The notes beneath the pieces are model-generated. The model ran no database searches and was not told the origin of the DNA. It was given only the letters and a program-made list of their open reading frames with translations. Positions 33,736-59,805 of a DNA stretch of 64,000 nt are shown here, piece by piece. The translations under genes and the position numbers were made by a program. The stretch is taken from assembly GCA_045605345.1 (NCBI GenBank), contig JAZUPT010000019.1, positions 64,603-128,602 of the forward strand, read 5' to 3'. How positions within the stretch are numbered: the stretch's first letter is position 1; every line of letters begins with the position of its first letter. The stretch comes from Candidatus Spyradenecus sp. GTDB lineage: Bacteria > Verrucomicrobiota > Kiritimatiellia > RFP12 > DVOR01.

Positions 33736-33748
33736 GGAGGATACTACA

Positions 33749-34747: not shown

Positions 34748-34767
34748 GTTTTCACTTACTACAGCTA

Positions 34768-34803
34768 ATAAAAGCCGTCTCCTTGTGGAGGCGGCTTTTT
34801 GTT
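34768..34803 (+). terminator. Rho-independent terminator after the GGGtGRT gene
   Basis: AAAGCCGTCTCC-TTGT-GGAGGCGGCTTT stem-loop followed by TTTGTTTC. Confidence 0.6.
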
Positions 34804-34994
34804 TCTTAGTGGGGCTAACTTAGGAGACCAGTCCAACAATGGACCTTTCAGAACAATTCATTCGTAGTGAACCTTTCAGAACAATTCATTCGTGCGAAGT
34901 GTACAGAATGAACCTACGCAGAACAAGCATCTATCCTAAGCGATGGCATCCGCTCACGCAAAGCCGTAACGCCACGCATTTAAATGGTGTTACT

Positions 34995-35145
34995 GCAGTT
35001 GATGGGGATGGCGCGGGGATAGAGCAGTTTCGGTCTGCGCTTGAGCCGACACTTAGAAGGTGGGGATGGCGCGGGGATAGAGCAGTGTCGGTCTGCGATT
35101 GAGCCGAATATTAGAAGATGGAGATGGCGCGGAGGATGTCGTTTA
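34995..35145. repeat. Tandem ~60-bp repeat (about 2.3 copies) overlapping the 3' end of dus
   Basis: TGGGGATGGCGCGGGGATAGAGCAGTTTCGGTCTGCGCTTGAGCCGACACTTAGAAGG repeated. The last partial copy encodes the Dus C-terminus (...RAISIF). Confidence 0.7.
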
Positions 35146-40547: not shown

Positions 40548-43353
40548 GGGTATCCTTTTGGAGGCAGGAGCCTTCTTCGGTGGCTTTTTTCACGGCGTCA
40601 CGATAACGATTCGCGACCTCCACCCCGAGGTCTTTCTCAATGATTTCTGCATAGCGAGCGGTGGCCACTGGGTGTAAGGGATAGTACCGCAGGCAGGTCT
40701 TAATCTCGCTTTCGGGGTCAGAGGAGGGAGGGAGATCCTTGGAGAGGATATAGGTCCAAAGTCGGTACTGACGCGGTTCAGAACGCAACCATCCCTCACA
40801 CACGGTGCGAGCGCGAGTGGGGTTTTCCTTAATTAGGCTTTCTAAGACACGGCAGCTAAGCTCTTGAGCGAGTGCAGGCGTCTTGGCAAGGCGTTCACGA
40901 ACGTTGAAGCTGCCGACGAATTTGACCGCCTCTTCGAGTTTGTTCTCAGCCAAGAGGGCATTGACGTAGTAGAGCGCATAGGCGAAGGTGCCATCGCGCA
41001 GGAAGAAGGACTGCATCTTGTCGGCAATGCGTTCACGTAGACGCGAGTTCTTTTCACGGAAGAGGGTGTAGAGCGCATCGTTGTCACTGAAGAAACGCTT
41101 GTTTTGTTGGTAGAGTTCGTCCGTCTTTGGGTGGTTGGGGTAGAGGCAGAAGAAGAGTTCCCAATCGGTTTCAGAGAGGGTATTTTGGGCCAAGAGTTGT
41201 GCCACTTCGTCTGCGGGAAGGTGGAGAATCGCCACGGCACGTTCAGGACGAGAGAGTTGGCTTGGGTCAGTTCGATAGAGCGCAAGAATCTCGGTCAAGA
41301 CGGCAGGCGCATTGCCTAATTGAAATCTTCTCAGACGGCTTGCCGAACAGAATCCCGGTGCACGCACAGGGCCATAGCGGTGTTCGAAGAGAAGGGCCGT
41401 GTGCTCAGAGGGTTGGCGCAGTTCTGGGCGCGCTTCCAAGACATCGCGGGCGGCATTGCGTTCGGCCTGTGTAATTGCGACGCCTTCGTGTTCCAACGCG
41501 GCGAGAGAGAGTGGAATGCTCGGGTTCTCAGGGTCAAGTGCGTGGGCGAGGCGCAGATGGGTGGCGGCCGCTTCGGGCTCTGCTCCAATGGCACAGGCGG
41601 CATGTTCTCGGGCGGCGAGTTGGTTCAATAAGAGCGTGCAGTGGTTGCCAATCGCCGTCTCTCCAAGCGTGGTTTCCTTCAAGAGCTTTGCCGCTTGGGC
41701 AGCATTGGTGGAGGTCTTGCGCGGGGGGAGTTGCTTTAAGATGCCGAGCTCAGGCGCAGTGGCAAGCAGATATTGGCGCAGGGGTTCCACGCCAACGTGT
41801 GTCAGGTTACGAATTAAAGGATCATGTGCCGCCACGTTTTTGAGGAAGGGGTGGTGATCCAATGATGCCGGCGTGAGCGTAGAGAAGGTTTCTGCTTGAG
41901 GTTGAATCGGTCTTCCGGAGATGTAACGGCGCGCCACGATGCCGAGTGTGTCTGGGTGATGCGTCATCCAGAGTGTAGCGGTTTCGGGGACGAGTTCATC
42001 TAAAAGCGGCGCAATGGCATGCATCGCCGTGCGGGCGGGCAGACCAGAGGCAGCAGGGGCATTTTTAATCGCAGAGTAAATCGCGAGGGTGCCAGAAAAG
42101 GCAAAGGTAAGGAGTAGGGCAATCAATCGAAACTTCGCACGAGACCAATGGACACGTTCGCCAAAACCGGTGTGTAACCACGACCCGAAGAGCACGCCAA
42201 TGCAGAGGGGCAACATAAAGCCTGCCACCAAGGCCATCGCATCGGGTTCGCAGAAGAGTTCCCATGCCGATTCGGGCCACTGCAAGAGCATCGCAATCAA
42301 AAGCCCGACGCAGGCGACTTGCCCAATGATTGGTGAGCCAAATTTGAGATAGGCGTGGGGGAAGCAACCGAAGAAGAGTGCCGCCGCAGAGAGGAAGATG
42401 ATGAGCGGGGCTAATCCTTCAAATGCGGTAAAGCGAGGCACTAACCCAAGGAGCCCCGTCATGAAGTGTTGGCCCCAGAGTGCGACGCCATTGGGGAGGG
42501 GCATCTGAGCCGCGTTCAGGACGCGCGCCCACCCCGCCGTGACCGCGATGGAGAGCAGGATCCCCACCACTAATCCTGCGCCAGCAGAGAGCAAGTAGGC
42601 GCCCCGTCCTTCTGCTTCATTGTGCAAAAAGATCCCACTCGCCAAAATAAAGGCAAAGAGTGAAACGGGCGTAAGTTCGGGTTGCGTAAAGGTGATAAAG
42701 GCAATGAATGCATAGGTGAGCGCAAGCAGGATGCAGTGACGCGCTTCAGGTAGACGGCTTAAAAGGTAACATTGGGTCGCTCGCCAACGAAACTCAAGGG
42801 CAAACGTAATCATGCAGGTCACCGCCAGCGCCGTTAAGGCTTGCGGGTAGGGGCGTGTGGCAATCGCCCAAATCGGAAGCGTGGCCAAAGCAAGCAAAGC
42901 CGTGGCGATGCCCGTCTCAAAGGAGACGTGCGAAATGGCAAAGAGTGCGCGGTCAAGTTCGTTATCGCGAATGCCTGTCAGGTCGACGCACGCATGGCGA
43001 GAGGTGGCAATTGCACAACGGAAAAGGCAGGCCACAATTCCCGCCCCAATCGCGGCATAGATGAGTCCCACAAAGAGCGTGAGATGATCATAGGGTAAAA
43101 GCGTAGCCAACGAACGAAGCACAATGGTATCCAAGGGTGCCGTCAAAATGTCGGGCGCTGAACCTGGATAACAAATCGCAGAAAAATATTCTGCGGAAAG
43201 TCCTGGGTAAGGTGTGAATGCAGACGTGCCGACATAAAAGAGCAATGCAACGACAAAAATGCCGACCGTCCAAAACAGATTCACGCTATGGCGTTTAAGA
43301 ATGTCAATCATAAGGCTATCTGTGTCATCATTAAGAAAACTAAACGCACTCAT
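40528..43353 (-). CDS. Large polytopic membrane protein with a C-terminal TPR-like domain (DUF2723 / O-mannosyltransferase-like)
   Basis: 941 aa with about 11 or more predicted transmembrane helices in the N-terminal 500 aa, then a helical-repeat C-terminal domain. Confidence 0.5.
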   Translation of the reverse strand: MSAFSFLNDDTDSLMIDILKRHSVNLFWTVGIFVVALLFYVGTSAFTPYPGLSAEYFSAICYPGSAPDILTAPLDTIVLRSLATLLPYDHLTLFVGLIYAAIGAGIVACLFRCAIATSRHACVDLTGIRDNELDRALFAISHVSFETGIATALLALATLPIWAIATRPYPQALTALAVTCMITFALEFRWRATQCYLLSRLPEARHCILLALTYAFIAFITFTQPELTPVSLFAFILASGIFLHNEAEGRGAYLLSAGAGLVVGILLSIAVTAGWARVLNAAQMPLPNGVALWGQHFMTGLLGLVPRFTAFEGLAPLIIFLSAAALFFGCFPHAYLKFGSPIIGQVACVGLLIAMLLQWPESAWELFCEPDAMALVAGFMLPLCIGVLFGSWLHTGFGERVHWSRAKFRLIALLLTFAFSGTLAIYSAIKNAPAASGLPARTAMHAIAPLLDELVPETATLWMTHHPDTLGIVARRYISGRPIQPQAETFSTLTPASLDHHPFLKNVAAHDPLIRNLTHVGVEPLRQYLLATAPELGILKQLPPRKTSTNAAQAAKLLKETTLGETAIGNHCTLLLNQLAAREHAACAIGAEPEAAATHLRLAHALDPENPSIPLSLAALEHEGVAITQAERNAARDVLEARPELRQPSEHTALLFEHRYGPVRAPGFCSASRLRRFQLGNAPAVLTEILALYRTDPSQLSRPERAVAILHLPADEVAQLLAQNTLSETDWELFFCLYPNHPKTDELYQQNKRFFSDNDALYTLFREKNSRLRERIADKMQSFFLRDGTFAYALYYVNALLAENKLEEAVKFVGSFNVRERLAKTPALAQELSCRVLESLIKENPTRARTVCEGWLRSEPRQYRLWTYILSKDLPPSSDPESEIKTCLRYYPLHPVATARYAEIIEKDLGVEVANRYRDAVKKATEEGSCLQKDTHAHRRL

Positions 43354-43609
43354 TATACCATAAAAAGCGCGCCCGCGAGAGCACGCTCATTGGAACTAGA
43401 ATCGCTCACGAATGAATAATCTTTGGCGACTGGGATTTAGCCTCCTGCAACTACCAACTGTAGTAAAGCCACTGCTAATTTCTTCTCTCTACACACACTA
43501 AGAGTGTAGCAAAAGGAAGACAAGTCGTCAACTCCGTTCACTCAAGTCAGTTAAACTCCCGCGGAAAGTAGGCGGCTTTCCCTTGGGAAAATGGGCGACT
43601 TTAGCCACC

Positions 43610-43700
43610 CGATTTCGTCTATTTTGCTCACCAATTTCGCCTATATTGCTCACCAACTTCGCTTATTTTGCAACTCAATTTCACTTATATTGACCCGGAA
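43610..43700. promoter_or_regulatory. About 3.5 tandem 23-bp repeats, plus three TTGTTGATAACT motifs further downstream (43729-43955)
   Basis: TTCGTCTATTTTGCTCACCAA / TTCGCCTATATTGCTCACCAA / CTTCGCTTATTTTGCAACTCAA / TTTCACTTATATTGACC, in the AT-rich 900-bp region upstream of the giant gene. Confidence 0.4.
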
Positions 43701-44304
43701 TTCCTTTAGCTTTCCCCAAAAAAGCTCCCAATTGTTGATAACTTTTCTACCACTTCTACCCCAAATTTTCGCAAGGAAGCCGCTGTAGCGGAGTTGATTT
43801 CGCCCCATTTTTGCATTATCTCTTTATTTCTCAATGCGTTATGCAGTTTCAACAAGGTTGAGCAAAAGTGCCGAAAATCTGCCAATCCGTAGAAGAATTT
43901 TCCAAAAACTGCGTCAAAAAAACCGCATTGTTGATAACTCGTTGATAACTCAAAAAAGTTTTCAACAAGCGAAAAATCGATGAAATTTTCGAAAAAGTGA
44001 TGGTTTCGCGCACGAGATTTTAAGGGACAAAAGGGATGAAAGGGAGGAGGAAAGAGACAGTTACCGCGAACGCAGTTTTAGAGAAGTGACAATCAGGTCC
44101 ATGAGCCCCCGCTCAAACAAGTTCCTTTTCCTATTTCAAATAGTCTCTTTTAATTGTGATTTTCGCCTTTCAAAGATGCTTCCTCCTTGGCGAGCTGCGG
44201 ATGATCCATTCGCGCTTGGGAAACATTTCTATCAACTTCTCGTATGTATAATTATTGATTTATAAATCATTTTGAGTTATAGTGGTAATAGGATTGAGGT
44301 GAGC

Positions 44305-47300
44305 ATGAACACATTCTTCCTTTTTCGTGCGACTATCACATTGCTCTTCGCAATATTCACATATCACACTCTTTTTGCAGAGGGCGACTTCCTTGGGCCG
44401 CCGCTACCCAATCTATCTCCTGAAGATGAAACAGAATTACCGAATGAGGGAAGTGATGATAATGAAGATGCGCCTGTTGAGGAGAATACACCAACTTCAT
44501 TAGCACTTATTGATTACTCGTCTTTTTTTAATCATTATGATTGGAGCACGTGGGATGAACGCATCGCAACATGGTATTCAAATTGTCATGATGCTGCTTT
44601 AATGACTCCACCGCTTCCATTAGGCACAAGAATGCATCATGCCCTTGGTGTTGAAGAAGTTTTTCCTCCCTTTGATGAGTTTTGCCCAAATTTAGAAGCG
44701 ATTGTCGTAGGAGATATTCAAACGTGGCAAGTTCGTGTAGAGGAGCACATTAATGCAGAAGGAGAACGCTCCTTTTGGACGCTCATTGGGAATGTCATTG
44801 TTCATAAGTTGCCATCACCAATGACATTTAATCCAACGAATTGGATTTGTTCTCTTTATGAAGATAATCTTCCTACGTGGCTTTTTGAAGACGAAGAGCA
44901 AACAACGGAGTGGTTGAGTATACGTGACCGAAGTCGCCTTGCAATTACATTAACAATCTTGCCGACAGGAATGCTCTCGACTTACAATACGGTCATGATT
45001 GAACTTGCAGAAGCCGAGCGTGTCAAGCGCGAGGAAGCGCAACAAGACCCTACCGCCTTTGCTTTTACACGGATTGATGTATCAGATAAAGATGTCTTTT
45101 TTGAATTTTACAACCCACTTAATGTTCGACTAAACCTACTGACAAGGGTGCGCCTTGATGAGCCGTGGGCATTATTTGGGGAGGTAGGTGAAACATCTTC
45201 TTTAGGTTACACATCAATTACATTCCCGCGACAAGAAAAAAATGACCCACCCTTTTTCCGTATCGTTGATGCCGTCACAGATACGGACGGTGATGGTTTG
45301 GCGGACGGTCTTGAACTCAATTATTTTAAGAGTGACCCCACCAAACAAGATTCTTCTGGCTCAGGGATTAGCGATTGGGATAAAGTGTATGTTTATAAGC
45401 TTGATCCAAGCGTACGCGATTCTGATGGTGACGGGTTAATTGATGGCGAAGAGATTCACATTGGGACAAATCCACAAGTTGCTGATAGCGATGGCGATGG
45501 GTTAAATGATGCAGAGGAAGTTAATAGCCTTCAACCCGCAGTAGCGTTTACTTGGATTCCAATAACGGCCTCTATTTTAACAAATCCCACGACGGAGTGC
45601 ATTGAGATTATATTGCCATCTGCGGTCAGTTTCGCCGGACATTTGTATGACAAGGTTATTATTGACACTGTGGGTAAACTAACACTCTCGCATACGTCTA
45701 TAGGAGATTCAGTTGATGAATTGATTATTTCAGGACATAGCAATCATCCCTATCTTTCAATTGATGCAGAATCAGACATTCTGTTTGAAGCGACAACATT
45801 TAATGATGTCCCCTGTTTTGTTTTTTCTTTTGTTAATTTAATTTTTGACGATGAGCGAAAAAGTTCTAATCACATCACATTTCAGATTGTATTGAGTTCA
45901 ATGTTCCCTAATCGTGTTTGGATTAACTATCTCGATATTGGTAAAGATAAATGGAATAATGGTGCAATTGCACAAATTCAAAATAAAACAAAGAAATCTT
46001 CTATCACGTTCCCCTACCTAAATGAAGGCACACTTACCACGCAAATCTCACTTGAGGGACGTTTTGGCTATGGCACCAATCCACATCTACCAGACAGTGA
46101 TGCCGATGGGTTATTGGACGGTGTTGAGATTAAAGAGGCGGGAAGTTCGCCTTTAATTGCCGACACCGACAAGGACTCCTTGTCTGATGGCAAAGAATTC
46201 TGTCACTATCACACCTCGCCAGTGTTGATTGACACCGATGGCGACACATTGCCTGATGCATGGGAAATTCAACATGGATTAGACCCCTGCTCAACAAATG
46301 GCAATCATGGACGTTTAGGAGATCCAGATGGAGACCGGCTGCCGAATGAGCTTGAGATGGAATACCAAACGTCTCCGACCCTTGCCGATTCCGATAGGGA
46401 CGGGCTGTCCGATTCGCACGAGGTTGGTCAAATTACTACTGAGAATGTTAATGAGACGCGTTCTGGGACAGTGCTTCATTCACTAAGCCATAGTTCAAAT
46501 GCAGATTCATTAGTCGCAACATTTTCACTCCCCTCTGCAATTCGCTTTAATACTACGTCTTACTCTAAGATCTTAATTTCATTGGATGGTCACATTCTTT
46601 TATTTAATGATGACGAAAATTTCTCTGAACTGTCTTATTCAAACATAAAATTAACGGGACTGAAGAGTTGCGCAACAGCTCTTATTATTGCAGCCTTCTG
46701 GGATGATTTGTATTATTTCGGCAATGAAACACGCATCACATTGGAAGAAACGGAGGATTCTTATCTTGTTCGCTATCAAGATGTTGGGTTATATGATTTT
46801 AAGTCAAACCAATCGGTTGTAGGTACGTTTGTTATTACGCTTCCTAAAAATGCCAATCCTTCTATTTCAATCACATACTCCAATTTTTCCTCTTCTTTTA
46901 CATGTCAAAGTGCGACCATCGGTGTTCGCACTGCATCTCTAAGTCGTGATATTGGACATAAAGTGTACCAATACACTTTTAACCAGGCAGTAGTACTCAA
47001 TAATACTACGGTGAATTTTTTAATAGGAAGTGGCACAGACCCCAACCTTTCCGACACCGATAATGATGGCATCTTGGATAGTGAGGAACTTGCCATCAAC
47101 ACCTCACCCTTTAGCGCCGACGACGATTTAGATGGACTACCTGATGGTTGGGAAATACAGTATTCGCTTAACCCAAAGTTTGCGAGTGGCAATCATGGCG
47201 CTAATGGAGACCTCGATGGAGATTTTCTGCGAAACTTAGATGAATACCGCGCAGGTTCCTCTCCCTTACACAGTGACACTGATAATGACGGTCTACTGGA

Positions 47301-50300
47301 TATTCAAGAGTTTGGTGGAGTCGCATTACAGTATAACGCGTCATGGATAACTACACCAAGTTCAATGACTAACATTATGTCTCGATTTAAAAGTACTTCC
47401 ACGGGATACGTTACGATTGATTGTAGTGATGCGCCATTTCAGTTTTTGAACACAAATTACACCACGATGTCTATCAATCTTAATGGACGAATTGACTTAT
47501 TTAATGATGATGTGTCGCCATCAGGATTAGCCACGAAAGGTCCAAAAGACTACTACACATGTGAGTCACAACAAAATCATATTTTGTTAGCCCCAGCATC
47601 GGGCGATCTATTTCTTTCATCATCCTCTTCCATTCTTTATGGAGAAACCGTTCTGAATGGGAAGGTATATGTTGTGGTGGAGTATCAACAGATGGGGGAT
47701 TATTGGAATAATGCAGACCTTGCCAATCATCAAATTTCGGCTCAGATTCTAATTCCTCGCGTCATCTCTCCCATTGAGCCGATTATCATCAATTACAAGA
47801 ATGTCGCGGGCAATCTATCACGAGAGCGACTCTCCGTAGGCTTTACAACACCAACACATTCAAAAGGGCGCGGTTTCGTTTTTAGTGAAAACCGACCGCT
47901 ATCCTCACCCGAAAGTGTTGCATTATTCCTTGGGATTGGCACATCGGCCTCAAATACAGATAGCGATTGCGATGGAATTAGTGATGGAGATGAATACAAC
48001 TATGGTACAAATGCTATTCAACCAGACACAGATGGAGATGGATTGTCTGATGGCTGGGAAATGCAACATGCTTATAATCCCCTCGTTCACAATGAAACAG
48101 ACGCGATTGTAGGCAATGAAAGAGATGCTGACCCAGATGAGGATGGCTTAACCAACCAGGAAGAAGAGTGTTTTAAAACGGTTCCAAAACAAACCGATAG
48201 TGATGGTGATGGCGTAAGTGATAAGACGGAAATTGACCAATGCAGTCATCCAATGAATGCTCAGGATGAAGGGATTCCAATGACGTATTATCCGGTCACC
48301 TTCGAATTCGGCGATTGGAGCACAAGTCATTCTGAAAAATATTATTTAACAATTAGGCCATTGGGAGAAGCCGCTTCAAATGAAAGTAAAATTGGGTGGG
48401 TCAACCTTGAATATGGTCAAGTTGAAACAAAGATTGCGCTTCTTAAAAAAGGTACAACATATGAAGTGTCACTCACGCATGCGAGTTCAAACCAAAGCGA
48501 ACCAGACTTAGACTACACCCTCAATATTAAATCTCCCAATGGTAGCGGACTCATCATTACAGACGCTATTACATCCCCCTTGGGAGCGTTTGCTGAATCC
48601 GAATGGGACTCCTCCGATCGTCTGTTTAAATTAACACTTGCAGGAGGCGATATTTACTGTGACATCAATCGAGATGGTCAAATAGAACAAGCAGTTGATG
48701 GCATTGCTACTCGAAGTGGAAAGAAGGTGCTTCATCATTGGTCCAACGACGATTATGACGTAGGGAACTGTAGCGATGACAAGGGTGCAACAGACATCCC
48801 TAAGGGAAACCAAAGCATTTTTAACGGAAATGACTTAAATTATCGTGATGGCACTGTTAATGGACGAGCCGACCTATTAGATTTTGTTCCCCTTTGGTTT
48901 GATATCGCTGATTTAATTAATGCGTGTCCGATGACGCAAGACTACACGTATACATTGTCATCAACGCTTGAAGTCGGCATTGTTTTTACCGAATTAGCCG
49001 CCAATGATGTCTTTAGTTGGCAGACCTCTGATGTGATAACCTACGACAAGCAAGGGGACGAGACACCCTCACATGAAGCCTCCGTCTACCCGATTGATGA
49101 CGCAGGTTTAGAGCTTAACCAAACGCTACTCAACCATTTAACAACTGGCATTGTGATGCTTGAAGGTAACGAACCAGGAGAAGGAGAATTAAAGCTTACG
49201 GTTTTGAAAGATGATATACTTATTTCCGAAATCGCATTTCAATTCAAGATTGTTGAAGTTGAAAACATGTACCGTACCATTGACATCACTTCAATGCCAC
49301 ATACCGTTGCTAAGCCAAGTGCGCCGACAGGATTAGCAGACTCCTATTTTGCGGAAAACACGCCTTACCTTTTCTTCTTGCATGGGTTTAATGTAACACC
49401 TAACACAGCGCGAGGATGGCAAGCAGAAATGTTTAAACGTTTGTGGCAGACTGGGTGTGATATGAAATTCGTTGGCGTAACGTGGTTTGGTGAAGAGGGT
49501 GTATTTGAGGCTTTTCGTTACCAAGAAAATGTCCGCAACGCACTTCTGTCAGGCGAATCATTCGCAGCATTGATGTCGCATTACAGTCAAGATAAAACGG
49601 TCGTAATGGCTCATAGCTTAGGCAATATGGTCGTCTCTTCTGCGTTTCAATTCTATGGCGCGACGTGTGACACCTTTATGATGCTTAATGCTGCAATCCC
49701 AAGCGAAGCTTTTGGGGCAACAGTTTCTAATGCTGACGAATACGTGAACTGTTTCGAAAGCGAGCAGCTCTTTGTTCCCGAGTCGTGGCACTCCTATCCC
49801 TGCAAGTCGTGGAGTGTTAATTGGCATAAACTCTTTTCCGCTGACGAAAAAGAGTCTAAATTAACATGGCGCAACGCATTCAAAGATGTCCCAACGAAAA
49901 CAACGGTCTATAACTTCTATTCCTCTGAAGATGAAGTCTTTGAACTTCACCACACGGTCCCATCAATGTTATCAGGAACAGAATTTGATCTTGCTTGGCC
50001 CTACATTGATTGGACTTTCCCTTATCTCCATCTACTATCGTCAATCCGAGTTGAAGCATCCCGCTATGCTTGGCATAAACAAGAAGTGTTTAAGGGAATG
50101 AATGGCCCCATTGGAACAAAAGGTGGTGGATGGTCATTCCATTGTCGCGAGCGTGGATTTAAGGTTTACCCAACGGGTGACGACGCGAGAAATGCAACAG
50201 ATACGCGATTACGGACGCGCCCCGTCTTTTCTACACGCGAAACCCCCTTCTTACGTAATGTGTCACAATACTCCGATGAAGAGTACTTCACACTCCTCGC

Positions 50301-50532
50301 CCTTCACATACCGGCCCTCACGCCTGCAATGGGAAGACCAGAAAATGCGACATTTTCGGATGTCGCCTCACTCTATCCGATTGACATGATTACAGTCAAA
50401 AACAATGGATGGGGGCGAGAACATTTTGAGTACAAAGGCCGTTGGCTTCATAGTGATGTCAAGAATATGGCATATTTTTATGTACATGAGCTTTTTCAAA
50501 CACTTAATTCTCTTGTGAAAAGGAGCAAATAA
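44305..50532 (+). CDS. Giant secreted multidomain protein: TSP3 calcium-binding repeats, three NIDO-like domains and a C-terminal alpha/beta-hydrolase (lipase/esterase-like) domain
   Basis: Signal peptide MNTFFLFRATITLLFAIFTYHTLFA, with RBS GAGGTGA before ATG 44305. There are at least 15 DxDxDGxxDxxE repeats (for example DTDGDGLADGLE, DSDGDGLIDGEE). Three paralogous domains of about 200 aa carry an FxFPxxxYxKIxIxxDGxIxLFND-type core. The C-terminal region has an LHGF oxyanion motif, an AHSLGN nucleophile elbow, and downstream D/H candidates. GC is much lower than the core genes. Confidence 0.8.
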   Translation: MNTFFLFRATITLLFAIFTYHTLFAEGDFLGPPLPNLSPEDETELPNEGSDDNEDAPVEENTPTSLALIDYSSFFNHYDWSTWDERIATWYSNCHDAALMTPPLPLGTRMHHALGVEEVFPPFDEFCPNLEAIVVGDIQTWQVRVEEHINAEGERSFWTLIGNVIVHKLPSPMTFNPTNWICSLYEDNLPTWLFEDEEQTTEWLSIRDRSRLAITLTILPTGMLSTYNTVMIELAEAERVKREEAQQDPTAFAFTRIDVSDKDVFFEFYNPLNVRLNLLTRVRLDEPWALFGEVGETSSLGYTSITFPRQEKNDPPFFRIVDAVTDTDGDGLADGLELNYFKSDPTKQDSSGSGISDWDKVYVYKLDPSVRDSDGDGLIDGEEIHIGTNPQVADSDGDGLNDAEEVNSLQPAVAFTWIPITASILTNPTTECIEIILPSAVSFAGHLYDKVIIDTVGKLTLSHTSIGDSVDELIISGHSNHPYLSIDAESDILFEATTFNDVPCFVFSFVNLIFDDERKSSNHITFQIVLSSMFPNRVWINYLDIGKDKWNNGAIAQIQNKTKKSSITFPYLNEGTLTTQISLEGRFGYGTNPHLPDSDADGLLDGVEIKEAGSSPLIADTDKDSLSDGKEFCHYHTSPVLIDTDGDTLPDAWEIQHGLDPCSTNGNHGRLGDPDGDRLPNELEMEYQTSPTLADSDRDGLSDSHEVGQITTENVNETRSGTVLHSLSHSSNADSLVATFSLPSAIRFNTTSYSKILISLDGHILLFNDDENFSELSYSNIKLTGLKSCATALIIAAFWDDLYYFGNETRITLEETEDSYLVRYQDVGLYDFKSNQSVVGTFVITLPKNANPSISITYSNFSSSFTCQSATIGVRTASLSRDIGHKVYQYTFNQAVVLNNTTVNFLIGSGTDPNLSDTDNDGILDSEELAINTSPFSADDDLDGLPDGWEIQYSLNPKFASGNHGANGDLDGDFLRNLDEYRAGSSPLHSDTDNDGLLDIQEFGGVALQYNASWITTPSSMTNIMSRFKSTSTGYVTIDCSDAPFQFLNTNYTTMSINLNGRIDLFNDDVSPSGLATKGPKDYYTCESQQNHILLAPASGDLFLSSSSSILYGETVLNGKVYVVVEYQQMGDYWNNADLANHQISAQILIPRVISPIEPIIINYKNVAGNLSRERLSVGFTTPTHSKGRGFVFSENRPLSSPESVALFLGIGTSASNTDSDCDGISDGDEYNYGTNAIQPDTDGDGLSDGWEMQHAYNPLVHNETDAIVGNERDADPDEDGLTNQEEECFKTVPKQTDSDGDGVSDKTEIDQCSHPMNAQDEGIPMTYYPVTFEFGDWSTSHSEKYYLTIRPLGEAASNESKIGWVNLEYGQVETKIALLKKGTTYEVSLTHASSNQSEPDLDYTLNIKSPNGSGLIITDAITSPLGAFAESEWDSSDRLFKLTLAGGDIYCDINRDGQIEQAVDGIATRSGKKVLHHWSNDDYDVGNCSDDKGATDIPKGNQSIFNGNDLNYRDGTVNGRADLLDFVPLWFDIADLINACPMTQDYTYTLSSTLEVGIVFTELAANDVFSWQTSDVITYDKQGDETPSHEASVYPIDDAGLELNQTLLNHLTTGIVMLEGNEPGEGELKLTVLKDDILISEIAFQFKIVEVENMYRTIDITSMPHTVAKPSAPTGLADSYFAENTPYLFFLHGFNVTPNTARGWQAEMFKRLWQTGCDMKFVGVTWFGEEGVFEAFRYQENVRNALLSGESFAALMSHYSQDKTVVMAHSLGNMVVSSAFQFYGATCDTFMMLNAAIPSEAFGATVSNADEYVNCFESEQLFVPESWHSYPCKSWSVNWHKLFSADEKESKLTWRNAFKDVPTKTTVYNFYSSEDEVFELHHTVPSMLSGTEFDLAWPYIDWTFPYLHLLSSIRVEASRYAWHKQEVFKGMNGPIGTKGGGWSFHCRERGFKVYPTGDDARNATDTRLRTRPVFSTRETPFLRNVSQYSDEEYFTLLALHIPALTPAMGRPENATFSDVASLYPIDMITVKNNGWGREHFEYKGRWLHSDVKNMAYFYVHELFQTLNSLVKRSK

Positions 50533-51593
50533 TGAAAATGTTTTATCACATTATGATTTTGTCATTATTACTTATGACAGCATGTGCAAACACATATGTT
50601 CCCAAAGCCAAAGTTACAATTCGTTCGGTGAACCAAGATGGGAAACCAATTGTAAACGAACCTGTGCGAATAGGATTTTCGTCATGGGGAGGAGTCTATG
50701 GAAAAACAGATCAGAATGGTTGCTTTACTGCAGAAGGACGACCGACGAGTGATTATCTTTTTGCAATCGGCCGGATGAAGGTAGATGAGGAATCCCCAAA
50801 GTATTATGCAACCTATTTTAGTAAAGATATCGCCCACTGGAAAGATTATCCCAAAGACGGCAAGTGGAAACCGTGGAATGAAACGATTGAAGTCGTCGTA
50901 AAAGAAAAAATAAATCCTATTCCAATGTATGCAAATGGGATTAAATTTAAAACAAATATCCCAGTCATTGATGAGTGGGTAGGATATGATTTCGAATACA
51001 ATGACTGGGTCGCTCCTCATGGCAAGGGGATTGTCGCAGATATTGAAGTTTCTCTTTCCGAAGAAAAGCCAACCGAAGAGGATGAAATTGAAGCATTGAA
51101 GATTCGTTTTCCGTATCCCCTCGCAGGCGCATACGTTATGAAAAAAGACCTCAATTGTGACTTTAAGTCCGTGTACCACGCAAATCCCAACGCAACGTAT
51201 GAACAAGAGATAACATGGTATAAAGCATATAAAATGATGGATGACATCAACCCTCATGCTTGGACAGAAAAAGAACGTTATTTTAAAGTAAGCAGAATGG
51301 TTAAATACAATCTCCTCTCCAAAGACGATTATCTCATTTTTCGTACACGAACAAAAGTGGACGAAAATGGGAATCTCATTGAAGCCCGTTATGGAAAAAT
51401 TTATGGACCTATTGAGTTTCGGTTAAATCTAACAGATGAAAGGCCGTCCTATCGCAAGCGTGTCACCCTCTGGAACTATTATTTCAATCCTACTGTTAAT
51501 GACACGAATCTTGAATATGATTTAAAACGTAATTTACTCAGTGACAAGGTTAAACCCAGAAAACGTGTAAACAACTCTCGTGTGTGGCCATAA
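50532..51593 (+). CDS. Lipoprotein paralog 1 with an N-terminal CarboxypepD_reg-like beta-sandwich; candidate immunity protein
   Basis: Lipobox LLLMTACAN. Its ATG overlaps the giant gene's stop (TAATG). It is about 90% identical overall to the next gene. Confidence 0.7.
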   Translation: MKMFYHIMILSLLLMTACANTYVPKAKVTIRSVNQDGKPIVNEPVRIGFSSWGGVYGKTDQNGCFTAEGRPTSDYLFAIGRMKVDEESPKYYATYFSKDIAHWKDYPKDGKWKPWNETIEVVVKEKINPIPMYANGIKFKTNIPVIDEWVGYDFEYNDWVAPHGKGIVADIEVSLSEEKPTEEDEIEALKIRFPYPLAGAYVMKKDLNCDFKSVYHANPNATYEQEITWYKAYKMMDDINPHAWTEKERYFKVSRMVKYNLLSKDDYLIFRTRTKVDENGNLIEARYGKIYGPIEFRLNLTDERPSYRKRVTLWNYYFNPTVNDTNLEYDLKRNLLSDKVKPRKRVNNSRVWP

Positions 51594-51649
51594 TCGCATC
51601 AAATCGTAACCATAGAAGATTGTAGAAATGGCTCATTGCCACCTTAACA

Positions 51650-51742
51650 TTGGCTTCATAGTGACGTCAAGAATATGGCTTATTTTTATATCCATCCGCT
51701 CTTTTCTCACATAGTAGAAATTCTTCAGAGAGGCTCCAAATG
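51650..51742 (+). repeat. Orphan copy of the giant gene's 3' end (encodes WLHSDVKNMAYFYIHPLFSHIVEILQRGSK*)
   Basis: TTGGCTTCATAGTGACGTCAAGAATATGGCTTATTTTTAT matches 50442-50482. It is in frame and ends with a TGA that overlaps the ATG of paralog 2. Confidence 0.75.
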
Positions 51743-52786
51743 AAAAAACACGTAACACTTGTTCTGTCTTTTTTATTTCTTTTAACTGCTTGTGCCCACA
51801 ACTACATTCCCGAAGCCAAGGTAACATTTAAGGTTGTTGATATGCATGGAAATCCAATCCCAAACGAAGATGCCACATTAGGTTTTTCACCCACGATTGG
51901 ATTTCATGGGAAAACGGATGAGAATGGTTATTTTACAGGCCGTGGTCGAACAGAAAGTGATTACGTCTTTTCTGTTGCTCGCGAATCAAACAAATACTAT
52001 CGAACCCGTTTTAGTAAAGATATCGCCCACTGGAAAGATTATCCCAAAGACGGCAAGTGGAAACCGTGGAATGAGACCATTAAAATCGTTGTAAAAGAAG
52101 AAATAAATCCTATTCCAATGTATGCAAATGGGATTAATTTTAAAACAAATATCCCTGTCGTTGATGAGTGGGTAGGATATGATTTCGAATACAATGACTG
52201 GGTCGCTCCTCATGGCAAGGGGATTGTTGCAGATATTGAAGTTTCTCTTTCCGAAGAAAAGCCAACCGAAGAGGATGAAATTGAAACGTTGAAGATTCGT
52301 TTCCCGTATCCCCTCGCAGGTGCATACGTTATGAAAAAAGACCTCAATTGTGACCTTAAGTCCGTGTACCACGCAAATCCTAACGCAACGTATGAACAAG
52401 AGATCACATGGTATAAAGCATATAAAATGATGGATGACATCAACCCTCATGCTTGGACAGAAAAAGAACGTTATTTTAAAGTAAGTAGAATGGTTAAATA
52501 CAATCTCCTCTCCAAAGACGATTATCTCATTTTTCGTACACGAACAAAAGTGGACGAAAATGGGAATCTCATTGAAGCCCGTTATGGAAAAATTTATGGA
52601 CCCATTGAGTTTCGGTTAAATCTAACAGATGAAAGACCGTCCTATCGCAAGCGTGTCACCCTCTGGAACTATTATCTCAATCCTACTGTTAATGACACGA
52701 ATCTTGAATATGATTCAAAGCGTAATTTACTCATTGACAAGGTCAAACCCAGAGAACGTGTGAACTACTCTGGTGTGTGGCCATAA
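51740..52786 (+). CDS. Lipoprotein paralog 2
   Basis: Lipobox LLLTACAH. Residues about 100-348 are nearly identical to paralog 1, whereas the N-terminal ~90 residues have diverged to roughly 55% identity. Confidence 0.7.
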   Translation: MKKHVTLVLSFLFLLTACAHNYIPEAKVTFKVVDMHGNPIPNEDATLGFSPTIGFHGKTDENGYFTGRGRTESDYVFSVARESNKYYRTRFSKDIAHWKDYPKDGKWKPWNETIKIVVKEEINPIPMYANGINFKTNIPVVDEWVGYDFEYNDWVAPHGKGIVADIEVSLSEEKPTEEDEIETLKIRFPYPLAGAYVMKKDLNCDLKSVYHANPNATYEQEITWYKAYKMMDDINPHAWTEKERYFKVSRMVKYNLLSKDDYLIFRTRTKVDENGNLIEARYGKIYGPIEFRLNLTDERPSYRKRVTLWNYYLNPTVNDTNLEYDSKRNLLIDKVKPRERVNYSGVWP

Positions 52787-52849
52787 TCGCATCGAATCGT
52801 AACCACAGAAGATTGTAGAAATGGCTCATCAAAACATTGCCCCTTAATA

Positions 52850-52900
52850 TTGGCTTCATAGTGACGTCAAGAATATGGCGTATTTTTATGTTTGTTGATT
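52850..52900 (+). repeat. Second orphan copy of the giant gene's 3' end (WLHSDVKNMAYFYVC*)
   Basis: TTGGCTTCATAGTGACGTCAAGAATATGGCGTATTTTTATG. The preceding 55-bp spacer is also shared with 51594-51649. Confidence 0.75.
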
Positions 52901-52959
52901 GAAAAAGTAAGTGGGCAGGTGGAACGAAATTACCTGTCCACTTACTTTCTTAATCAGCC

Positions 52960-53090
52960 AATTTCTTTTGACGAGTCATATTTATTCAACGATGCGGCTT
53001 TTGAAAATGAAGGTTTGACAAGGGTGGGGGCTTTTGATACCCTCTCAACGAAAGTACGTTTGATGCATTTTTATTAGGATAGCGTAGGCG
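52960..53090 (+). repeat. 130-bp direct repeat, copy A: a gene 3'-end fragment encoding ...ISFDESYLFNDAAFENEGLTRVGAFDTLSTKVRLMHFY*
   Basis: About 97% identical to 54518-54647. Together they bracket the fic gene. Confidence 0.7.
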
Positions 53091-53175
53091 TGTCGCTTGC
53101 TGCAGTCAACCTTGCAGGCGTTGAAGATTGAATTTCGCAGACGCCTGATGACTTAGTGACGAGGAAGTAAGTGGG

Positions 53176-54288
53176 ATGAATGACTTTGATGAATATCTTG
53201 TAGCAGGAGAGCCAGATAAGCGTGAGCGCGCATACGGATGGGCTACCGCCATCGGTCTGCAGGATGTTGATGGGCTGAAGGTTTCTGACCTTCTACTCAA
53301 GACTGCGAGGCGCAATATTGAAGGTGAGATAACTCAGGTAGATGCCGGGCAGATTATTGATGCTTACTATGAAACAAAGGAAGGACATGATCAGCCAGAA
53401 GATCAAAAAGAGGCTGATAAGGTGGCGTGTAGAATTAATGAAACGATCAATTCACCAACGTTTCGTTTTTCGCCAGAATACTACATTGGATTGCACGGTA
53501 GACTCTTTAAAGATGTGTTCGCTCACGCCGGAAAGATACGTGAGGTGGAGCTTACGAAGCGTGAATGGGTGTTGAACGGTGACACGGTCAACTATACGCC
53601 GTCGTATTTAGTGAAAGACTCACTTGCGTATGATTTCGCGGAGGAAAAGAAGTTTAGTTACGGTAGACTCTCTGATGAAGCTTTTACGGAACATTTTGCG
53701 TCTTTTATTTCGGGGCTTTGGCAGATTCATCCATTCAGAGAGGGGAATACTCGAACGGTTGCGGTTTTTGCCATTAAGTATCTGCATGCGATGCGTTATG
53801 ATGTGACGAATGCGCTATTCAAGGAAAAGTCGTGGTATTTTAGAAATGCGCTTGTGCGGGCGAATTATGAAAACCGGCAACTGAATGTTGAGAAGACGAT
53901 GCAACCTTTGGAGAACTTCTTCAAAGTCCTTATTTACGGAAGTAATATTGAGTTACGAAATAGATTTTTGCGTATTGGGGGTGAACATGAGATATCAAAG
54001 TCAAATGCTGTAAAGGATTTACATTGGAATGGGGGCGGCATAGATGTCGGTATAAAGAGTGTGGATGTCGGTATAAATGTCGGTATAAAGCAGGGGGAAA
54101 TACTCTCGCATACTGAAGAAAATGCCGTTAAGGCCATCTTGCGAGACAATCGCATAACGGCCAAGGCGTTGTCAGCTGTGTTGGGGGTTACCTCGCGTCA
54201 GGCTGAACGTATAATGGTGTCGCTTAAGAAGAAGACGGGCCTGCGTCGCGAGGGGTCGCGTAAAAATGGTCGTTGGATATTTTGCTAA
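53176..54288 (+). CDS. fic: Fic/DOC-family protein with a C-terminal winged-helix domain and a degenerate Fic motif
   Basis: HPFREGNTRTVAVFA, against the canonical HPFx(D/E)GNGRxxR; C-terminal wHTH-like LSAVLGVTSRQAERIMVSLKKKTGL; low GC. Confidence 0.75.
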   Translation: MNDFDEYLVAGEPDKRERAYGWATAIGLQDVDGLKVSDLLLKTARRNIEGEITQVDAGQIIDAYYETKEGHDQPEDQKEADKVACRINETINSPTFRFSPEYYIGLHGRLFKDVFAHAGKIREVELTKREWVLNGDTVNYTPSYLVKDSLAYDFAEEKKFSYGRLSDEAFTEHFASFISGLWQIHPFREGNTRTVAVFAIKYLHAMRYDVTNALFKEKSWYFRNALVRANYENRQLNVEKTMQPLENFFKVLIYGSNIELRNRFLRIGGEHEISKSNAVKDLHWNGGGIDVGIKSVDVGINVGIKQGEILSHTEENAVKAILRDNRITAKALSAVLGVTSRQAERIMVSLKKKTGLRREGSRKNGRWIFC

Positions 54289-54517
54289 TTGGTGCAGAAA
54301 ATAATGCATAACGCCTTGGTAATCAACAATTTCACATTGACAGTAAAATTAACAATTGACTGGCAGTCCAAGCAAAACTATCCGTGCTCGCAGGGAAATT
54401 AAAGCCTCTTGGATTCGCGACTCATCCACACTTGAATGCACCGCATGATAGACTTGTAGAAAGAAATATAACCGATGCTTGTGTGAGAATACCGATATGC
54501 TTTTTGGTGTAGAGTGG

Positions 54518-54647
54518 AATTTCTTTTGACGAGTCATACTTATTCAACGAAGCGGCTTTTGAAAATGAAGGTTTGACAAGGGTGGGGGCTTTTGATACCC
54601 TCTCAACGAAAGTACGTTTGATGCATTTTTATAGGATAGCGTAGGCG
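54518..54647 (+). repeat. 130-bp direct repeat, copy B
   Basis: Same coding-fragment sequence as copy A, here preceded by a stop and ending ...HFYRIA*. Confidence 0.7.
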
Positions 54648-54651
54648 ATAG

Positions 54652-55992
54652 GTGATGAAGGACGATTTGTTTCAATTTGAAGAGTCAACATGGCAGGAGG
54701 AGGCTCCAGATAATCGTAAGACGGGGCCACTTCCAGCGCGGATGCGTCCGCGTTCGCTTGAGGAAATCGTTGGGCAAGATCACATTTTGGCGCCAGGACG
54801 TTTGTTGCGTCGCGTGATTGAGAGTGACCGCTTTACGAATTTAATCTTTTATGGGCCGCCTGGTACGGGAAAGACGACGCTGGCGGAGGTGATTGCGCGC
54901 ACGACGCATCGTCGCTTTGAGCGGACGAGTGGGGTGATGAGTAATGTGGCGCAATTGCGCGCCATTTGCGAGCAGGCGCGGACGTTGCGAGGGCGGATTG
55001 GGACGGTGTTATTCGTTGATGAAATTCACCGATTCAATAAGTCCCAACAGGATGTGCTCTTGCCTTATGTTGAGGATGGTACGGTGACGTTGATTGGTGC
55101 GACCACGCATCATCCTGGGATCTTTATCAATACGCCACTAGTTTCACGAAGCTTGGTCTTTGAGTTGCACGCATTGACGGTGGCAGATATTGTGACACTC
55201 TTAAATCGTGCGGTCGCGGATAAGGAGCGCGGGCTAGGCGAAGACCCGGTCGTGTTAGAGCCTACCGCGGCGCATTTCTTGGCGGAGATTTGCGAAGGGG
55301 ATGCGCGTCGTGCGTTGACTGCGCTTGAGATTGCGGTGCGCTCAACGCCCCCGGCGGAGGATGGGCGGATCGTCATCACGCCCGAGGTGATGGGGGAGTG
55401 CGTCCAACGTCGCATTATCGCTTACGATAAGGATGAGGACCAACACTACGACACCATTTCGGCGTTCATCAAGTCCATTCGTGGGTCGGATCCTGATGCG
55501 GCAATTTATTGGTTGGCCAAGATGCTTGAGGGGGGAGAAGATCCACGCTTTATTGCTCGTCGCCTCATCATTTCCGCAAGTGAGGATATCGGCAATGCCG
55601 ATCCGCGTGGTCTAACGGTGGCGGTGGCGGCAATGCAGGCGGTGGAGTTTATTGGGATGCCGGAAGCGCGTATTTCGTTGGCGCAGGCGACCACCTATTT
55701 GGCTACCGCGCCGAAATCCAATGCGGCCTATCTCGCTGTGAATGAGGCTATGGCAGATATTCGTGCAGGACGCGTGCAACCTGTGCCCGAGCACCTTAAA
55801 AATGTCCATGTGAAGGCAGAGGGGAAGGCACGCGCCCCAGATTATCTCTATCCGCACGATTATAAAGATACGGCCGTGGATCAAGCCTATTTAACGGTGC
55901 CGAAGACGTATTATCATCCGAAGGCGGCGGGTTATGAGGATACGATTGCCAAACGTTTGGAGTGGCTTCGCAACAAGAAGAAGCAGGGTTAA
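54652..55992 (+). CDS. rarA: Replication-associated recombination protein A (AAA+ ATPase)
   Basis: LIFYGPPGTGKTTLAEVIA (Walker A), VLFVDEIHRFNK, and the MgsA C-terminal domain. Confidence 0.9.
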   Translation: MMKDDLFQFEESTWQEEAPDNRKTGPLPARMRPRSLEEIVGQDHILAPGRLLRRVIESDRFTNLIFYGPPGTGKTTLAEVIARTTHRRFERTSGVMSNVAQLRAICEQARTLRGRIGTVLFVDEIHRFNKSQQDVLLPYVEDGTVTLIGATTHHPGIFINTPLVSRSLVFELHALTVADIVTLLNRAVADKERGLGEDPVVLEPTAAHFLAEICEGDARRALTALEIAVRSTPPAEDGRIVITPEVMGECVQRRIIAYDKDEDQHYDTISAFIKSIRGSDPDAAIYWLAKMLEGGEDPRFIARRLIISASEDIGNADPRGLTVAVAAMQAVEFIGMPEARISLAQATTYLATAPKSNAAYLAVNEAMADIRAGRVQPVPEHLKNVHVKAEGKARAPDYLYPHDYKDTAVDQAYLTVPKTYYHPKAAGYEDTIAKRLEWLRNKKKQG

Positions 55993-59626: not shown

Positions 59627-59805
59627 AAAACCTCCACGAGGGTTGCGAAATGAAAAAGCGGGGTGGCACAGTTCACACCCTTTACATCGTAACAAATCTT
59701 TTCCGTGAAGAGAATTGAAAATCGGAGGTGTTGCATTGTGTAATTCGGAATACGCATTGATGAAAGGAAGTGGAGAGGCGCGGCAGGTGTGGTACAATGG
59801 AAGGC

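Follow-up and report, generated by a model that had tools for sequence, protein, structure and literature searches.

A strain-variable low-GC island without its own recombinase in Candidatus Spyradenecus, carrying a giant hydrolase gene, tandem lipoprotein genes and a fic cassette

Gene content and composition of the island

We analyzed a 64-kb stretch of DNA from Candidatus Spyradenecus sp. (64,000 nucleotides of contig JAZUPT010000019.1, assembly GCA_045605345.1; hereafter the window, to which all coordinates refer unless a contig is named). The analysis concerns an 11-kb region at 43354-54651 that holds a giant gene ending in an alpha/beta-hydrolase domain, two lipoprotein genes, and a fic gene. 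An earlier note, made from the letters of this DNA, had described the region as a low-GC accessory island bounded by core genes. Our results support this description: the stretch is a real, strain-variable accessory island without a recombinase of its own, located between conserved genes. The gene map is also as described in that note:

39471-40547, minus strand: queA (Pfam Queuosine_synth, E 3e-130)
40528-43353, minus strand: gene of a 941-aa membrane protein without Pfam match
From the membrane-protein gene to the giant gene: non-coding upstream spacer, 0.95 kb
44305-50532, plus strand: giant gene, 2075 aa (Pfam TSP3_bac, E 1.5e-33)
50532-51593, plus strand: lipoprotein 1, 353 aa, lipobox LLMTAC
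51740-52786, plus strand: lipoprotein 2, 348 aa, lipobox FLLTAC
53176-54288, plus strand: fic, 370 aa (Pfam Fic, E 1.2e-10, above the family threshold)
54652-55992: rarA (Pfam MgsA_C, E 1e-64)

The island consists of three layers: a module formed by the giant gene and its lipoprotein gene, a tandem duplication within this module, and an independent insertion/deletion polymorphism of fic. These layers represent separate events, because conspecific contigs differ in exactly the lipoprotein copy number and fic. L096 and L081 (the L numbers denote contigs and loci of relatives), which come from independent assemblies, show that the arrangement seen in the window is not a chimera.

The composition check proposed in the earlier note was run, and it bears out the low-GC claim. 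In 1-kb bins, the GC content is 0.39-0.44 over 43001-54000, compared with 0.54-0.57 on either side. The drop persists at synonymous positions (GC3) and is thus not an effect of amino-acid composition: GC3 equals 0.375 in the giant gene, 0.36 in both lipoprotein genes, and 0.456 in fic, versus 0.55-0.65 in queA, the gene of the 941-aa membrane protein, rarA, and other flanking genes. The island is not the sole deviant stretch, as other low-GC patches are observed at 16-18 kb, 24-33 kb, and 61-64 kb of the window.

No open reading frame (ORF) of recombinase size was found within 43354-54651, in a search limited to the island rather than extended to all ORFs of the window; for this interval, the statement that no recombinase is present holds. 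The remaining island ORFs of at least 150 aa are only antisense shadows of the lipoprotein genes. The 64-kb window contains no tRNA gene, positions 43000-55000 contain no Rfam family at E<=1, and no direct repeat bracketing the giant-lipoprotein module was found in the window. Therefore, of the features that define classical genomic islands, deviant composition and variation in presence or position are observed here, and those of the integrase-mediated type (an integrase or transposase, a tRNA target, att-like flanking repeats) are not. Low-GC islands that lack an integrase are nothing unusual; the content of this one is less ordinary.

The named homologs of the island proteins come from Kiritimatiellae or Kiritimatiellia. 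Among 185,579 species representatives, the nearest rarA genes show 69-71% identity and belong to metagenome-assembled genomes (MAGs) of Kiritimatiellia/Lentisphaerae that share no neighbor genes with the window. No exact match to the RarA or Fic protein of the window was found. These results point to an uncultured Kiritimatiellia-like bacterium, and an origin from Akkermansia, which the GC content had first suggested, was rejected.

Variation among strains and change of chromosomal site

The following relatives were compared with the window:

L081: giant protein 97% identical; same left side as in the window
L088: giant protein 95.5%, rarA 97.8%; left neighbors CPSase and ArsC; two lipoprotein genes; no fic
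L082/L083: giant protein 80%; 55 bp after a D12 methyltransferase gene and an EcoRI-family restriction gene
L084: giant protein 62%; after an HU-like gene
L085/L089: giant protein 53%; module between GGGtGRT and Dus
L086: giant protein 46%; beside a homolog of the window ORF 56978-59878 and ATP synthase genes
L092: same core block, without the module at either end; no giant homolog observed in this locus
L096: 95% DNA identity; membrane-protein gene, giant gene, one lipoprotein gene, fic with both repeats, rarA

Conspecific contigs have different numbers of lipoprotein genes, not all of them contain fic, and one has a different left neighbor. The position and content of the module also vary among relatives, so that the synteny comparison identifies it as accessory, in agreement with the earlier note. 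The module GC content is 0.35-0.45 in L081, L082, L084, L085, L086, and L088, whatever the GC content of the surroundings.

In related species, the module has moved between chromosomal sites. The best example is provided by L085, where queA is 95% identical to that of the window and the giant protein is 53% identical. The block from Dus to queA and the membrane-protein gene is conserved, and the module is located on the opposite side of this block from that in the window. The site occupied in L085 is empty here:

34748-35110: intergenic spacer between the adjacent GGGtGRT and Dus genes, the "empty site", which holds a 10.5-kb cassette in L085

In L085, the cassette directly follows the conserved GGGtGRT terminator and is flanked by 47-bp direct repeats (87% identity, spaced 10,524 bp), the right one being the 3' end of Dus. 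A plain empty site of the other kind, with the membrane-protein gene directly beside rarA, was not found, and the neighbors of the core block differ in every species examined.

Within the species, synonymous divergence (dS) and nonsynonymous divergence (dN) were estimated by the Nei-Gojobori method against three conspecific contigs, with eleven comparisons for flanking core genes. The giant gene has dS of 0.071-0.088 and lipoprotein 1, where orthologous, 0.03-0.06, compared with 0.13-0.29 in the flanking core genes, so that dS is two to three times lower in the island. At the same time, dN of the island genes is equal to or higher than that of the core genes; the dN/dS ratio is about 0.24 in the giant gene and in fic, compared with 0.018 in rarA. 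DNA identity to L096 is 92-96% in the flanks and 96-99.8% in the island interior. The simplest reading of the lower island dS is that the strains share a more recent common ancestor in the island than in the flanks. The evidence suggests that strains of the species exchange the island more rapidly than its flanks diverge, and the exchange appears to proceed by homologous recombination through the conserved flanks. The earlier note had proposed recombination at conserved gene tails. The 47-bp Dus-tail repeats of L085, the 131-bp repeats around fic described below, and the low island dS agree with this proposal, but the module in the window has no flanking repeat to match it.

Repeat arrays were observed near two of these sites. 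The GGGtGRT-Dus spacer contains tandem repeats of about 63 bp (GATGGGGATGGCGCGGGGATAGAGCAG...) at 34900-35100, which are also present in L081. The alternative left junction of L088 carries tandem repeats at 1217-1330 and 1737-1910 (57 bp, two copies; units of 20-22 bp of the AAAGTGTAAAG type). These L088 repeats end where homology to the other strains starts, and hence this rearrangement breakpoint coincides with repeat arrays.

The giant protein and its C-terminal hydrolase

The giant gene starts at the ATG at 44305, after GAGGTGA, in agreement with the gene call in the 97% identical L081. Its product consists of a Sec-type signal peptide, an N-terminal domain, three super-repeats of about 300 aa, a beta-sandwich, a calcium-loop-like domain of about 225 aa, and an alpha/beta hydrolase, in this order. 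Each super-repeat combines TSP3 calcium-binding repeats with a beta-rich domain, and the super-repeats are 28-30% identical to each other (E 1e-20 to 1e-34). The best NCBIfam matches are the surface-associated proteins CglD and MtsD, both below the threshold and covering the TSP3 repeats only. Beyond the Sec signal, no delivery signature of type V, VI, or VII secretion systems (T5SS, T6SS, T7SS) or of the Rhs, PAAR, or LXG kind is recognizable in the protein. A NIDO-like label for the internal beta-rich domains was considered and dropped, since Pfam gives no match even at E<=1.

The hydrolase was delineated as follows:

49342-50529, plus strand: C-terminal serine alpha/beta-hydrolase domain (DUF900, alignments, AlphaFold2 model)
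Proposed catalytic residues, plus strand (alignments): HG 1693-1694; Ser1771 at 49615-49617; Asp1876 at 49930-49932; His2049 at 50449-50451

The alignment columns of the oxyanion HG, of Ser1771 (AHSLGN), and of His2049 (WLHSD) are invariant in 46 homologs; Asp1876 is invariant across the window protein and six full-length orthologs (a seven-sequence alignment). The Pfam DUF900 (PF05990) match is marginal, as the isolated domain scores 22.8 bits against a cut-off of 20.5 and the full-length protein scores 19.9, below it; moreover, the match spans the N-terminal half of the model only. An AlphaFold2 model of the C-terminal 759 aa, with a predicted local distance difference test score (pLDDT) of 88, contains the beta-sandwich, the domain of about 225 aa with DxNxDG-like loops, and the alpha/beta hydrolase. 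A sequence search of the PDB with the same 759 aa gave no match. The Foldseek search with the hydrolase model retrieved generic esterases and lipases with low TM-scores, and no specific Tle structure was present among the best 50 of 1606 matches.

Full-length orthologs of the giant protein range from 97% down to 46% identity. The hydrolase is their best-conserved segment (70-78% in orthologs that are 53-62% identical overall), and the lowest conservation (33-40%) is seen in the beta-rich domains of the super-repeats. A scan of 1.84 billion representatives with the hydrolase domain yielded 1124 clusters (50% identity) at E<=1e-10. In the best 150 of these 1124 clusters the domain is C-terminal, and the proteins range from 360 to more than 3400 aa, short fragments aside. 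Thus the same C-terminal hydrolase ends many large proteins with differing N-terminal regions.

The lipoproteins and the 1.2-kb tandem unit

The start codon of lipoprotein 1 overlaps the stop codon of the giant gene by one base (TAATG). Lipoproteins 1 and 2 are 82% identical, and neither has a match in Pfam, NCBIfam, PADLOC, or PHROG. The AlphaFold2 model of the lipoprotein is all-beta (pLDDT 92); structural neighbors in the PDB were found for its N-terminal CarboxypepD_reg/CnaB-like sandwich only, and none for the larger domain.

Self-comparison of the window reveals a 1.2-kb tandem unit (50442-51689 versus 51650-52889, 85% identical, 2.03 copies). The unit comprises the last 90 bp of the giant gene, that is, the 3' tail of the hydrolase, and a lipoprotein gene. 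Three small features mark its copies and the end of the module:

51650-51739, plus strand: hydrolase 3'-end remnant, an open alternative tail of 31 codons, which opens the second tandem copy and begins at the catalytic-His strand
52850-52891, plus strand: third, partial 42-bp His-strand repeat (self-comparison)
52891-52920 / 52932-52961: hairpin with 30-bp arms, following the 42-bp repeat, at the right end of the giant-lipoprotein module

The translation of the remnant is HWLHSDVKNMAYFYIHPLFSHIVEILQRGSK, and its stop codon overlaps the start codon of lipoprotein 2 (ATGA). Lipoprotein 2 is a mosaic: residues 101-353 are 94-98% identical to lipoprotein 1, and the N-terminal 100 aa are of a different type, common to the paralogs in L084 and L085. 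The conspecific L096, with its one lipoprotein gene, lacks lipoprotein 2. In general, the lipoprotein paralogs are mosaics of at least two N-terminal and at least two central sequence types. They are intact and keep the lipobox even where only a hydrolase stump precedes them. The dN/dS ratio is 0.19-0.31 for lipoprotein 2 versus lipoprotein 1 and 0.17-0.4 among lipoprotein copies generally.

The window, L088, and L096 each contain one more copy of the 42-bp repeat than they have lipoprotein genes. We considered the 42-bp His-strand repeat as a dedicated recombination site acting at the DNA level and rejected this possibility by a synonymous-codon test. For invariant residues in five orthologs, its synonymous codon identity is 0.48, compared with the gene-wide mean of 0.51, and 396 of the 629 test windows score as high. 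The repeat therefore recurs because of protein conservation and of duplication within each locus.

The fic cassette

The third layer of the island is bounded by a duplication of the region upstream of rarA:

52960-53090: left 131-bp direct repeat, a duplicate of the rarA upstream region, 97.7% identical to the right copy
54518-54647: right 131-bp direct repeat, ending 4 bp before the rarA start codon

The copies are spaced 1558 bp, with fic in between. Both repeats and fic are present in L096. In L088, fic is absent, and a single 131-bp copy is found at 11237-11365. The duplication, together with this single-copy empty site, points to either an insertion or a repeat-mediated deletion.

The Fic protein matches the PADLOC family PDC-S72 over its full length (positions 4-373 of 377, E 7.3e-112), and its closest solved structures are the Fic domains of VbhT and Bep proteins (E about 1e-6). 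In both respects, the full-length PDC-S72 match and the similarity of its core to VbhT/Bep, it resembles other Fic defence candidates. Judged by sequence, it is a candidate single-gene phage-defence protein, PDC-S72 being itself a candidate family. The canonical Fic motif is HxFx(D/E)GNGRxxR; the active-site motif here is HPFREGNTRT, without the final Arg. No small antitoxin-like ORF adjoins fic. A 12-bp tandem repeat (ATGTCGGTATAA, 2.1 copies at 54036-54090) inside fic encodes a repeated DVGI(K/N) peptide located between the Fic core and a C-terminal region resembling a winged helix-turn-helix; the arrangement of the copies differs in L096.

The locus is a natural example of three types of change in an island without a recombinase of its own: (i) change of site with duplication of a gene tail, (ii) unequal crossing-over between repeated 3' tails, and (iii) insertion of a small cassette with a 131-bp duplication.

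Hydrolase-lipoprotein arrays in other loci

Metagenomes were scanned with an alignment of 24 lipoprotein sequences, and 600 candidate stretches were examined. A relative of the lipoprotein is encoded in at least 525 loci (525 of the 600 stretches). Array statistics were collected from the best 80 metagenomic loci, in which 105 lipoprotein copies are preceded by 400 bp or more of sequence. Hydrolase-coding DNA on the same strand lies at most 350 bp upstream of 77 of the 105 copies; 38 of these upstream hydrolases are at least 1 kb long, and the other 39 are shorter fragments. Another 19 copies directly follow a lipoprotein gene, and nine follow neither; altogether, 96 of the 105 copies belong to hydrolase-lipoprotein arrays. 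Two to five lipoprotein copies are present in 29 of the 80 loci.

Compared with the first copy, further hydrolases stacked in the same locus show 32-73% identity; those of full length retain HG, AHSLG, and WxHSD. In L110, hydrolases and lipoproteins diverge in step (73%/59%, 32%/35%, and 34%/38%, respectively). Stop and start codons overlap along the arrays, and some of the downstream hydrolases are truncated at the 5' end and have no signal peptide. Divergent or truncated orphan hydrolases occur in many of the arrays; orphans, full or truncated, with lipoproteins of their own are found in L084, L085, L093, L110, L120, and L135. The L093 locus is a distant example. Here, a lipoprotein with 32% identity follows a TSP3-hydrolase gene that is frameshifted in that MAG; the downstream part of the array comprises an ORF that encodes the hydrolase alone and lacks a signal peptide, another divergent lipoprotein, and a piece of the preceding domain. 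The surroundings of the arrays suggest that they sit in hot spots resembling defence islands.

Several details of individual loci can be added. In L120, one downstream orphan hydrolase (7145-8701) has its own N-terminal signal anchor, and hence at least some of the stacked hydrolases may be produced and exported on their own, as enzymes of about 520 aa. In L093, a D12 methyltransferase/SacI-like restriction pair lies at 14440-18224, about 1 kb beyond the array, together with an ISL3 transposase. In L082, genes of a D12 methyltransferase and an EcoRI-like endonuclease adjoin the module at 8104-9945.

Comparison with known systems

The layout of polymorphic toxin loci with orphan toxin-immunity cassettes, such as CdiA/CdiI, Rhs/RhsI, and MafB/MafI, has been defined (PMC4436062). 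The locus described here resembles them in four respects: (i) a large exported multidomain protein has an N-terminal signal, central repeats, and a C-terminal enzymatic domain; (ii) a partner gene, for which an immunity function is putative here, follows immediately with overlapping stop and start codons; (iii) truncated or alternative C-terminal domains lie downstream, each with its own partner gene; and (iv) there is repeated homology permitting recombination, strain variation, and location in an island. Unlike in polymorphic toxins, the C-terminal domain belongs to one enzyme family throughout and is the most conserved part among close orthologs. A variable C-terminus behind a conserved N-terminus, the mark of polymorphic toxins, is not seen, and at the family level the converse holds, with the same C-terminus joined to different N-termini. 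The locus also differs in having the Sec signal as its only trafficking element and no known demarcation motif, and in its partner, a lipoprotein of 330-350 aa without a match to a described family.

Immunity lipoproteins for lipase effectors have been described, namely the outer-membrane lipoprotein Tli3 (PMC9860674) and Tli of E. cloacae (10.1101/2023.03.28.534661). As in these T6SS Tle/Tli pairs, a serine hydrolase of the GxSxG type (AHSLGN elbow) is followed here by a lipoprotein with a lipobox, and the lipoprotein genes can be multiplied. In contrast to Tle/Tli, no T6SS, VgrG, PAAR, Hcp, or adaptor genes occur in the island or among the called neighbors of nine loci, and the hydrolase is fused to a Sec-exported repeat protein of 1700 aa and has no sequence similarity to a solved structure.

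Integrase-less genomic islands and flexible islands exchanged through homologous recombination of their conserved flanks share with this one the deviant GC content, core flanks, lack of an own recombinase, lower divergence within the species, and duplicated gene tails at junctions. Unlike such islands, the module has also changed its chromosomal site between species, and further layers are added to it by a tandem duplication and by a small, independent cassette. We do not file the locus under any named toxin family and describe it as arrays of effector-immunity-like cassettes. The large, unannotated protein pair follows the genomic grammar of toxin and immunity genes, yet no delivery apparatus is known for it, and its enzymatic end is unusually conserved.

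Possible function and alternative explanations

We consider it somewhat less than an even chance (roughly 45%) that the locus works like a polymorphic effector-immunity array of a lipase and a lipoprotein. In this scenario, the TSP3 repeats and the three diversifying beta-rich domains would form a long stalk or binding region, and the Sec-exported hydrolase, of the lipase/esterase type, would act as an effector attacking membranes or the envelope. The translationally coupled lipoprotein would be its cognate neutralizing (immunity) partner located in the envelope. The additional lipoprotein genes behind hydrolase stumps would represent orphan immunity cassettes, gained and lost by unequal recombination between repeated hydrolase tails. 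The 1.56-kb Fic cassette would have been inserted separately into the rarA upstream region, with the 131-bp duplication. The toxicity of the hydrolase, the immunity function of the lipoprotein, an export route beyond Sec, and a role of the upstream repeats are the parts of this scenario that we infer.

The lipoprotein genes stay intact and constrained even behind hydrolase stumps, which argues that the lipoprotein is useful without an enzyme encoded in cis. This agrees with immunity and less well with an anchor, export, or folding partner.

Several observations weigh against the effector-immunity array. Conservation among close orthologs is highest in the hydrolase and lowest in the central domains, which is the opposite of the classical pattern with a conserved N-terminus and a variable toxic C-terminus. 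The giant protein has no delivery domain, and no secretion-system genes were seen adjoining its gene in the loci examined. Among the best 50 of 1606 Foldseek matches there were only generic alpha/beta hydrolases and no specific Tle. The larger domain of the lipoprotein lacks a structural neighbor, and hence nothing marks this protein as an inhibitor. Kiritimatiellia are glycan degraders, which makes a surface esterase with an anchoring partner a realistic alternative. Finally, the low dS of the island, on which its proposed exchange among strains is based, could partly be an effect of composition on the Nei-Gojobori estimate.

According to the main alternative, the giant protein is an adhesin-enzyme that is secreted or located at the cell surface, such as an esterase of carbohydrates or lipids used in substrate capture, the lipoprotein is its outer-membrane anchor or its export or display partner, and the locus serves niche adaptation. 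The Sec signal and the TSP3 repeats are consistent with this explanation, as are the sub-threshold matches of these repeats to CglD and MtsD, the conserved hydrolase, central beta-rich domains that diversify like binding modules, the lack of a delivery domain in the giant protein, and the CarboxypepD_reg/CnaB-like sandwich at the start of the lipoprotein, a fold common in surface proteins. However, intact lipoprotein genes persist behind hydrolase stumps in arrays of up to five copies, and divergent pairs are stacked in one locus, some of the orphan hydrolases having no signal peptide; an anchor without cargo has no obvious use. The locus is also strain-variable and situated among defence genes. 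We regard this alternative as possible, although on balance improbable.

Adjacent, translationally coupled genes of an enzyme and a membrane-tethered partner of about 340 aa would also be expected for a lipase with a specific foldase (Lif/LipB-like), where the lipoprotein would be a steric chaperone folding the hydrolase; the LipA:LipB complex does appear among the distant Foldseek matches of the hydrolase, at rank 48. Lif proteins, however, are alpha-helical, and the confident lipoprotein model is all-beta. Moreover, neither orphan partner genes without an enzyme nor arrays of divergent partners would be expected for a chaperone, and this function is very unlikely.

Similarly slight is the chance that the low GC content results from the amino-acid composition of repeat proteins or from local selection, the genes being ordinary core content of the lineage. 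The module is old in the clade, as its orthologs occur in several related species, and the distant L093 locus is only slightly below the GC content of its host. Against this stand the GC3 values (0.36-0.46 versus 0.55-0.65 in flanking genes), the different positions of the module among relatives sharing the core block, some of which have no module at these sites, the variation in copy number and presence within the species, and, in L085, the contrast between the giant protein (53% identity) and queA (95%).

Returning to the effector-immunity array, a broader and more doubtful proposal is that the giant-hydrolase and lipoprotein arrays constitute an undescribed family of Sec-dependent interbacterial lipase toxins with lipoprotein immunity and orphan cassettes, with a stalk for target binding and no known contact-dependent delivery machine, common in Kiritimatiellia and related environmental bacteria. 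If the hydrolase is indeed an antibacterial or envelope-active effector, the arrays would represent a weapon family independent of secretion systems in a poorly studied gut and environmental phylum, and a function would be assigned to several hundred "hypothetical" lipoproteins.

The upstream spacer

The spacer between the membrane-protein gene and the giant gene contains no ORF longer than 65 aa over its 0.95 kb and no conserved small ORF. The following features were identified in it:

43485-44304, plus strand: non-coding DNA of about 0.8 kb that moves with the giant gene (strain alignments)
43612-43692: 22-bp tandem repeats, 3.7 copies (Tandem Repeats Finder, period 22, 81-86% matches)
43734, 43930, and 43941 (span 43732-43951), plus strand: three GTTGATAACT motifs, the last two in tandem

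The alignment of L088, whose left neighbors are CPSase and ArsC, with L081 and the window starts at about AGTGTAGCAAA (window position about 43500). As this homology starts about 0.8 kb upstream of the giant gene, the spacer travels with the gene. Its proximal 330 bp or so are nearly invariant in four strains, and the distal half is hypervariable. Over 43501-44000, the most divergent segment of the region, L096 shows 76% identity to the window, versus 96-99% in the coding part.

The repeats had been reported in the earlier note with a period of 23 bp, which is corrected here to 22 bp. They are present in four copies in the window and in three copies each in L081, L088, and L096; the unit varies among strains around the core AATTTCGC...ATTG. 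Of the three motifs that the same note had proposed, GTTGATAACT does occur exactly three times in the 64-kb window, always inside the spacer, but the full TTGTTGATAACT is present in only two of the three. All three GTTGATAACT motifs are invariant in L081 and L088, and two of them carry one substitution each in L096. The motifs are absent upstream of the orthologous giant genes in L082, L084, L085, and L086. The repeats and the motifs are specific to the allele of this species, with cores kept in four strains, and a putative array of regulator-binding sites is plausible. A sigma-70-like match at 44255-44283 was rejected as the promoter, as it leaves no room for a ribosome-binding site before the start codon.

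The least probable of all explanations, close to negligible, is that the spacer is a replication origin or what is left of an iteron plasmid by which the island arrived. The arrangement does resemble iteron origins, with four iteron-like 22-bp direct repeats in an AT-rich setting and three near-DnaA-box motifs (TTATCAACA on the other strand; eight of nine positions match the DnaA-box consensus). However, neither a Rep gene nor any other ORF lies inside or beside the spacer, and the GC skew has no turning point at 43-44 kb, both of which make an origin unlikely. In addition, the segment is the most divergent among strains (76%), the motifs are absent upstream of the L082, L084, L085, and L086 orthologs, and the giant gene of L082 starts only 55 bp after restriction-modification genes.

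Other features of the window

The low-GC patch at 23449-33000 (GC 0.40-0.50) opens beside an HU-DNA_bdg (PF14848) gene at 23449-24093 and contains LpoB-like, CsgG-like, and PEGA-domain genes. In L082 and L084, HU-DNA_bdg genes likewise lie a short distance upstream of the giant-lipoprotein module. A lone low-GC gene at 16641-17696 on the minus strand, similar to family-2 glycosyltransferases, has an island-like composition (GC 0.416, GC3 0.358) among neighbors of normal GC content. Two long ORFs overlap on opposite strands, 33644-34654 (minus) and 33716-34747 (plus). According to the gene calls in L081 and L085, the plus-strand ORF is a GGGtGRT-family gene, and the minus-strand ORF is its antisense shadow.

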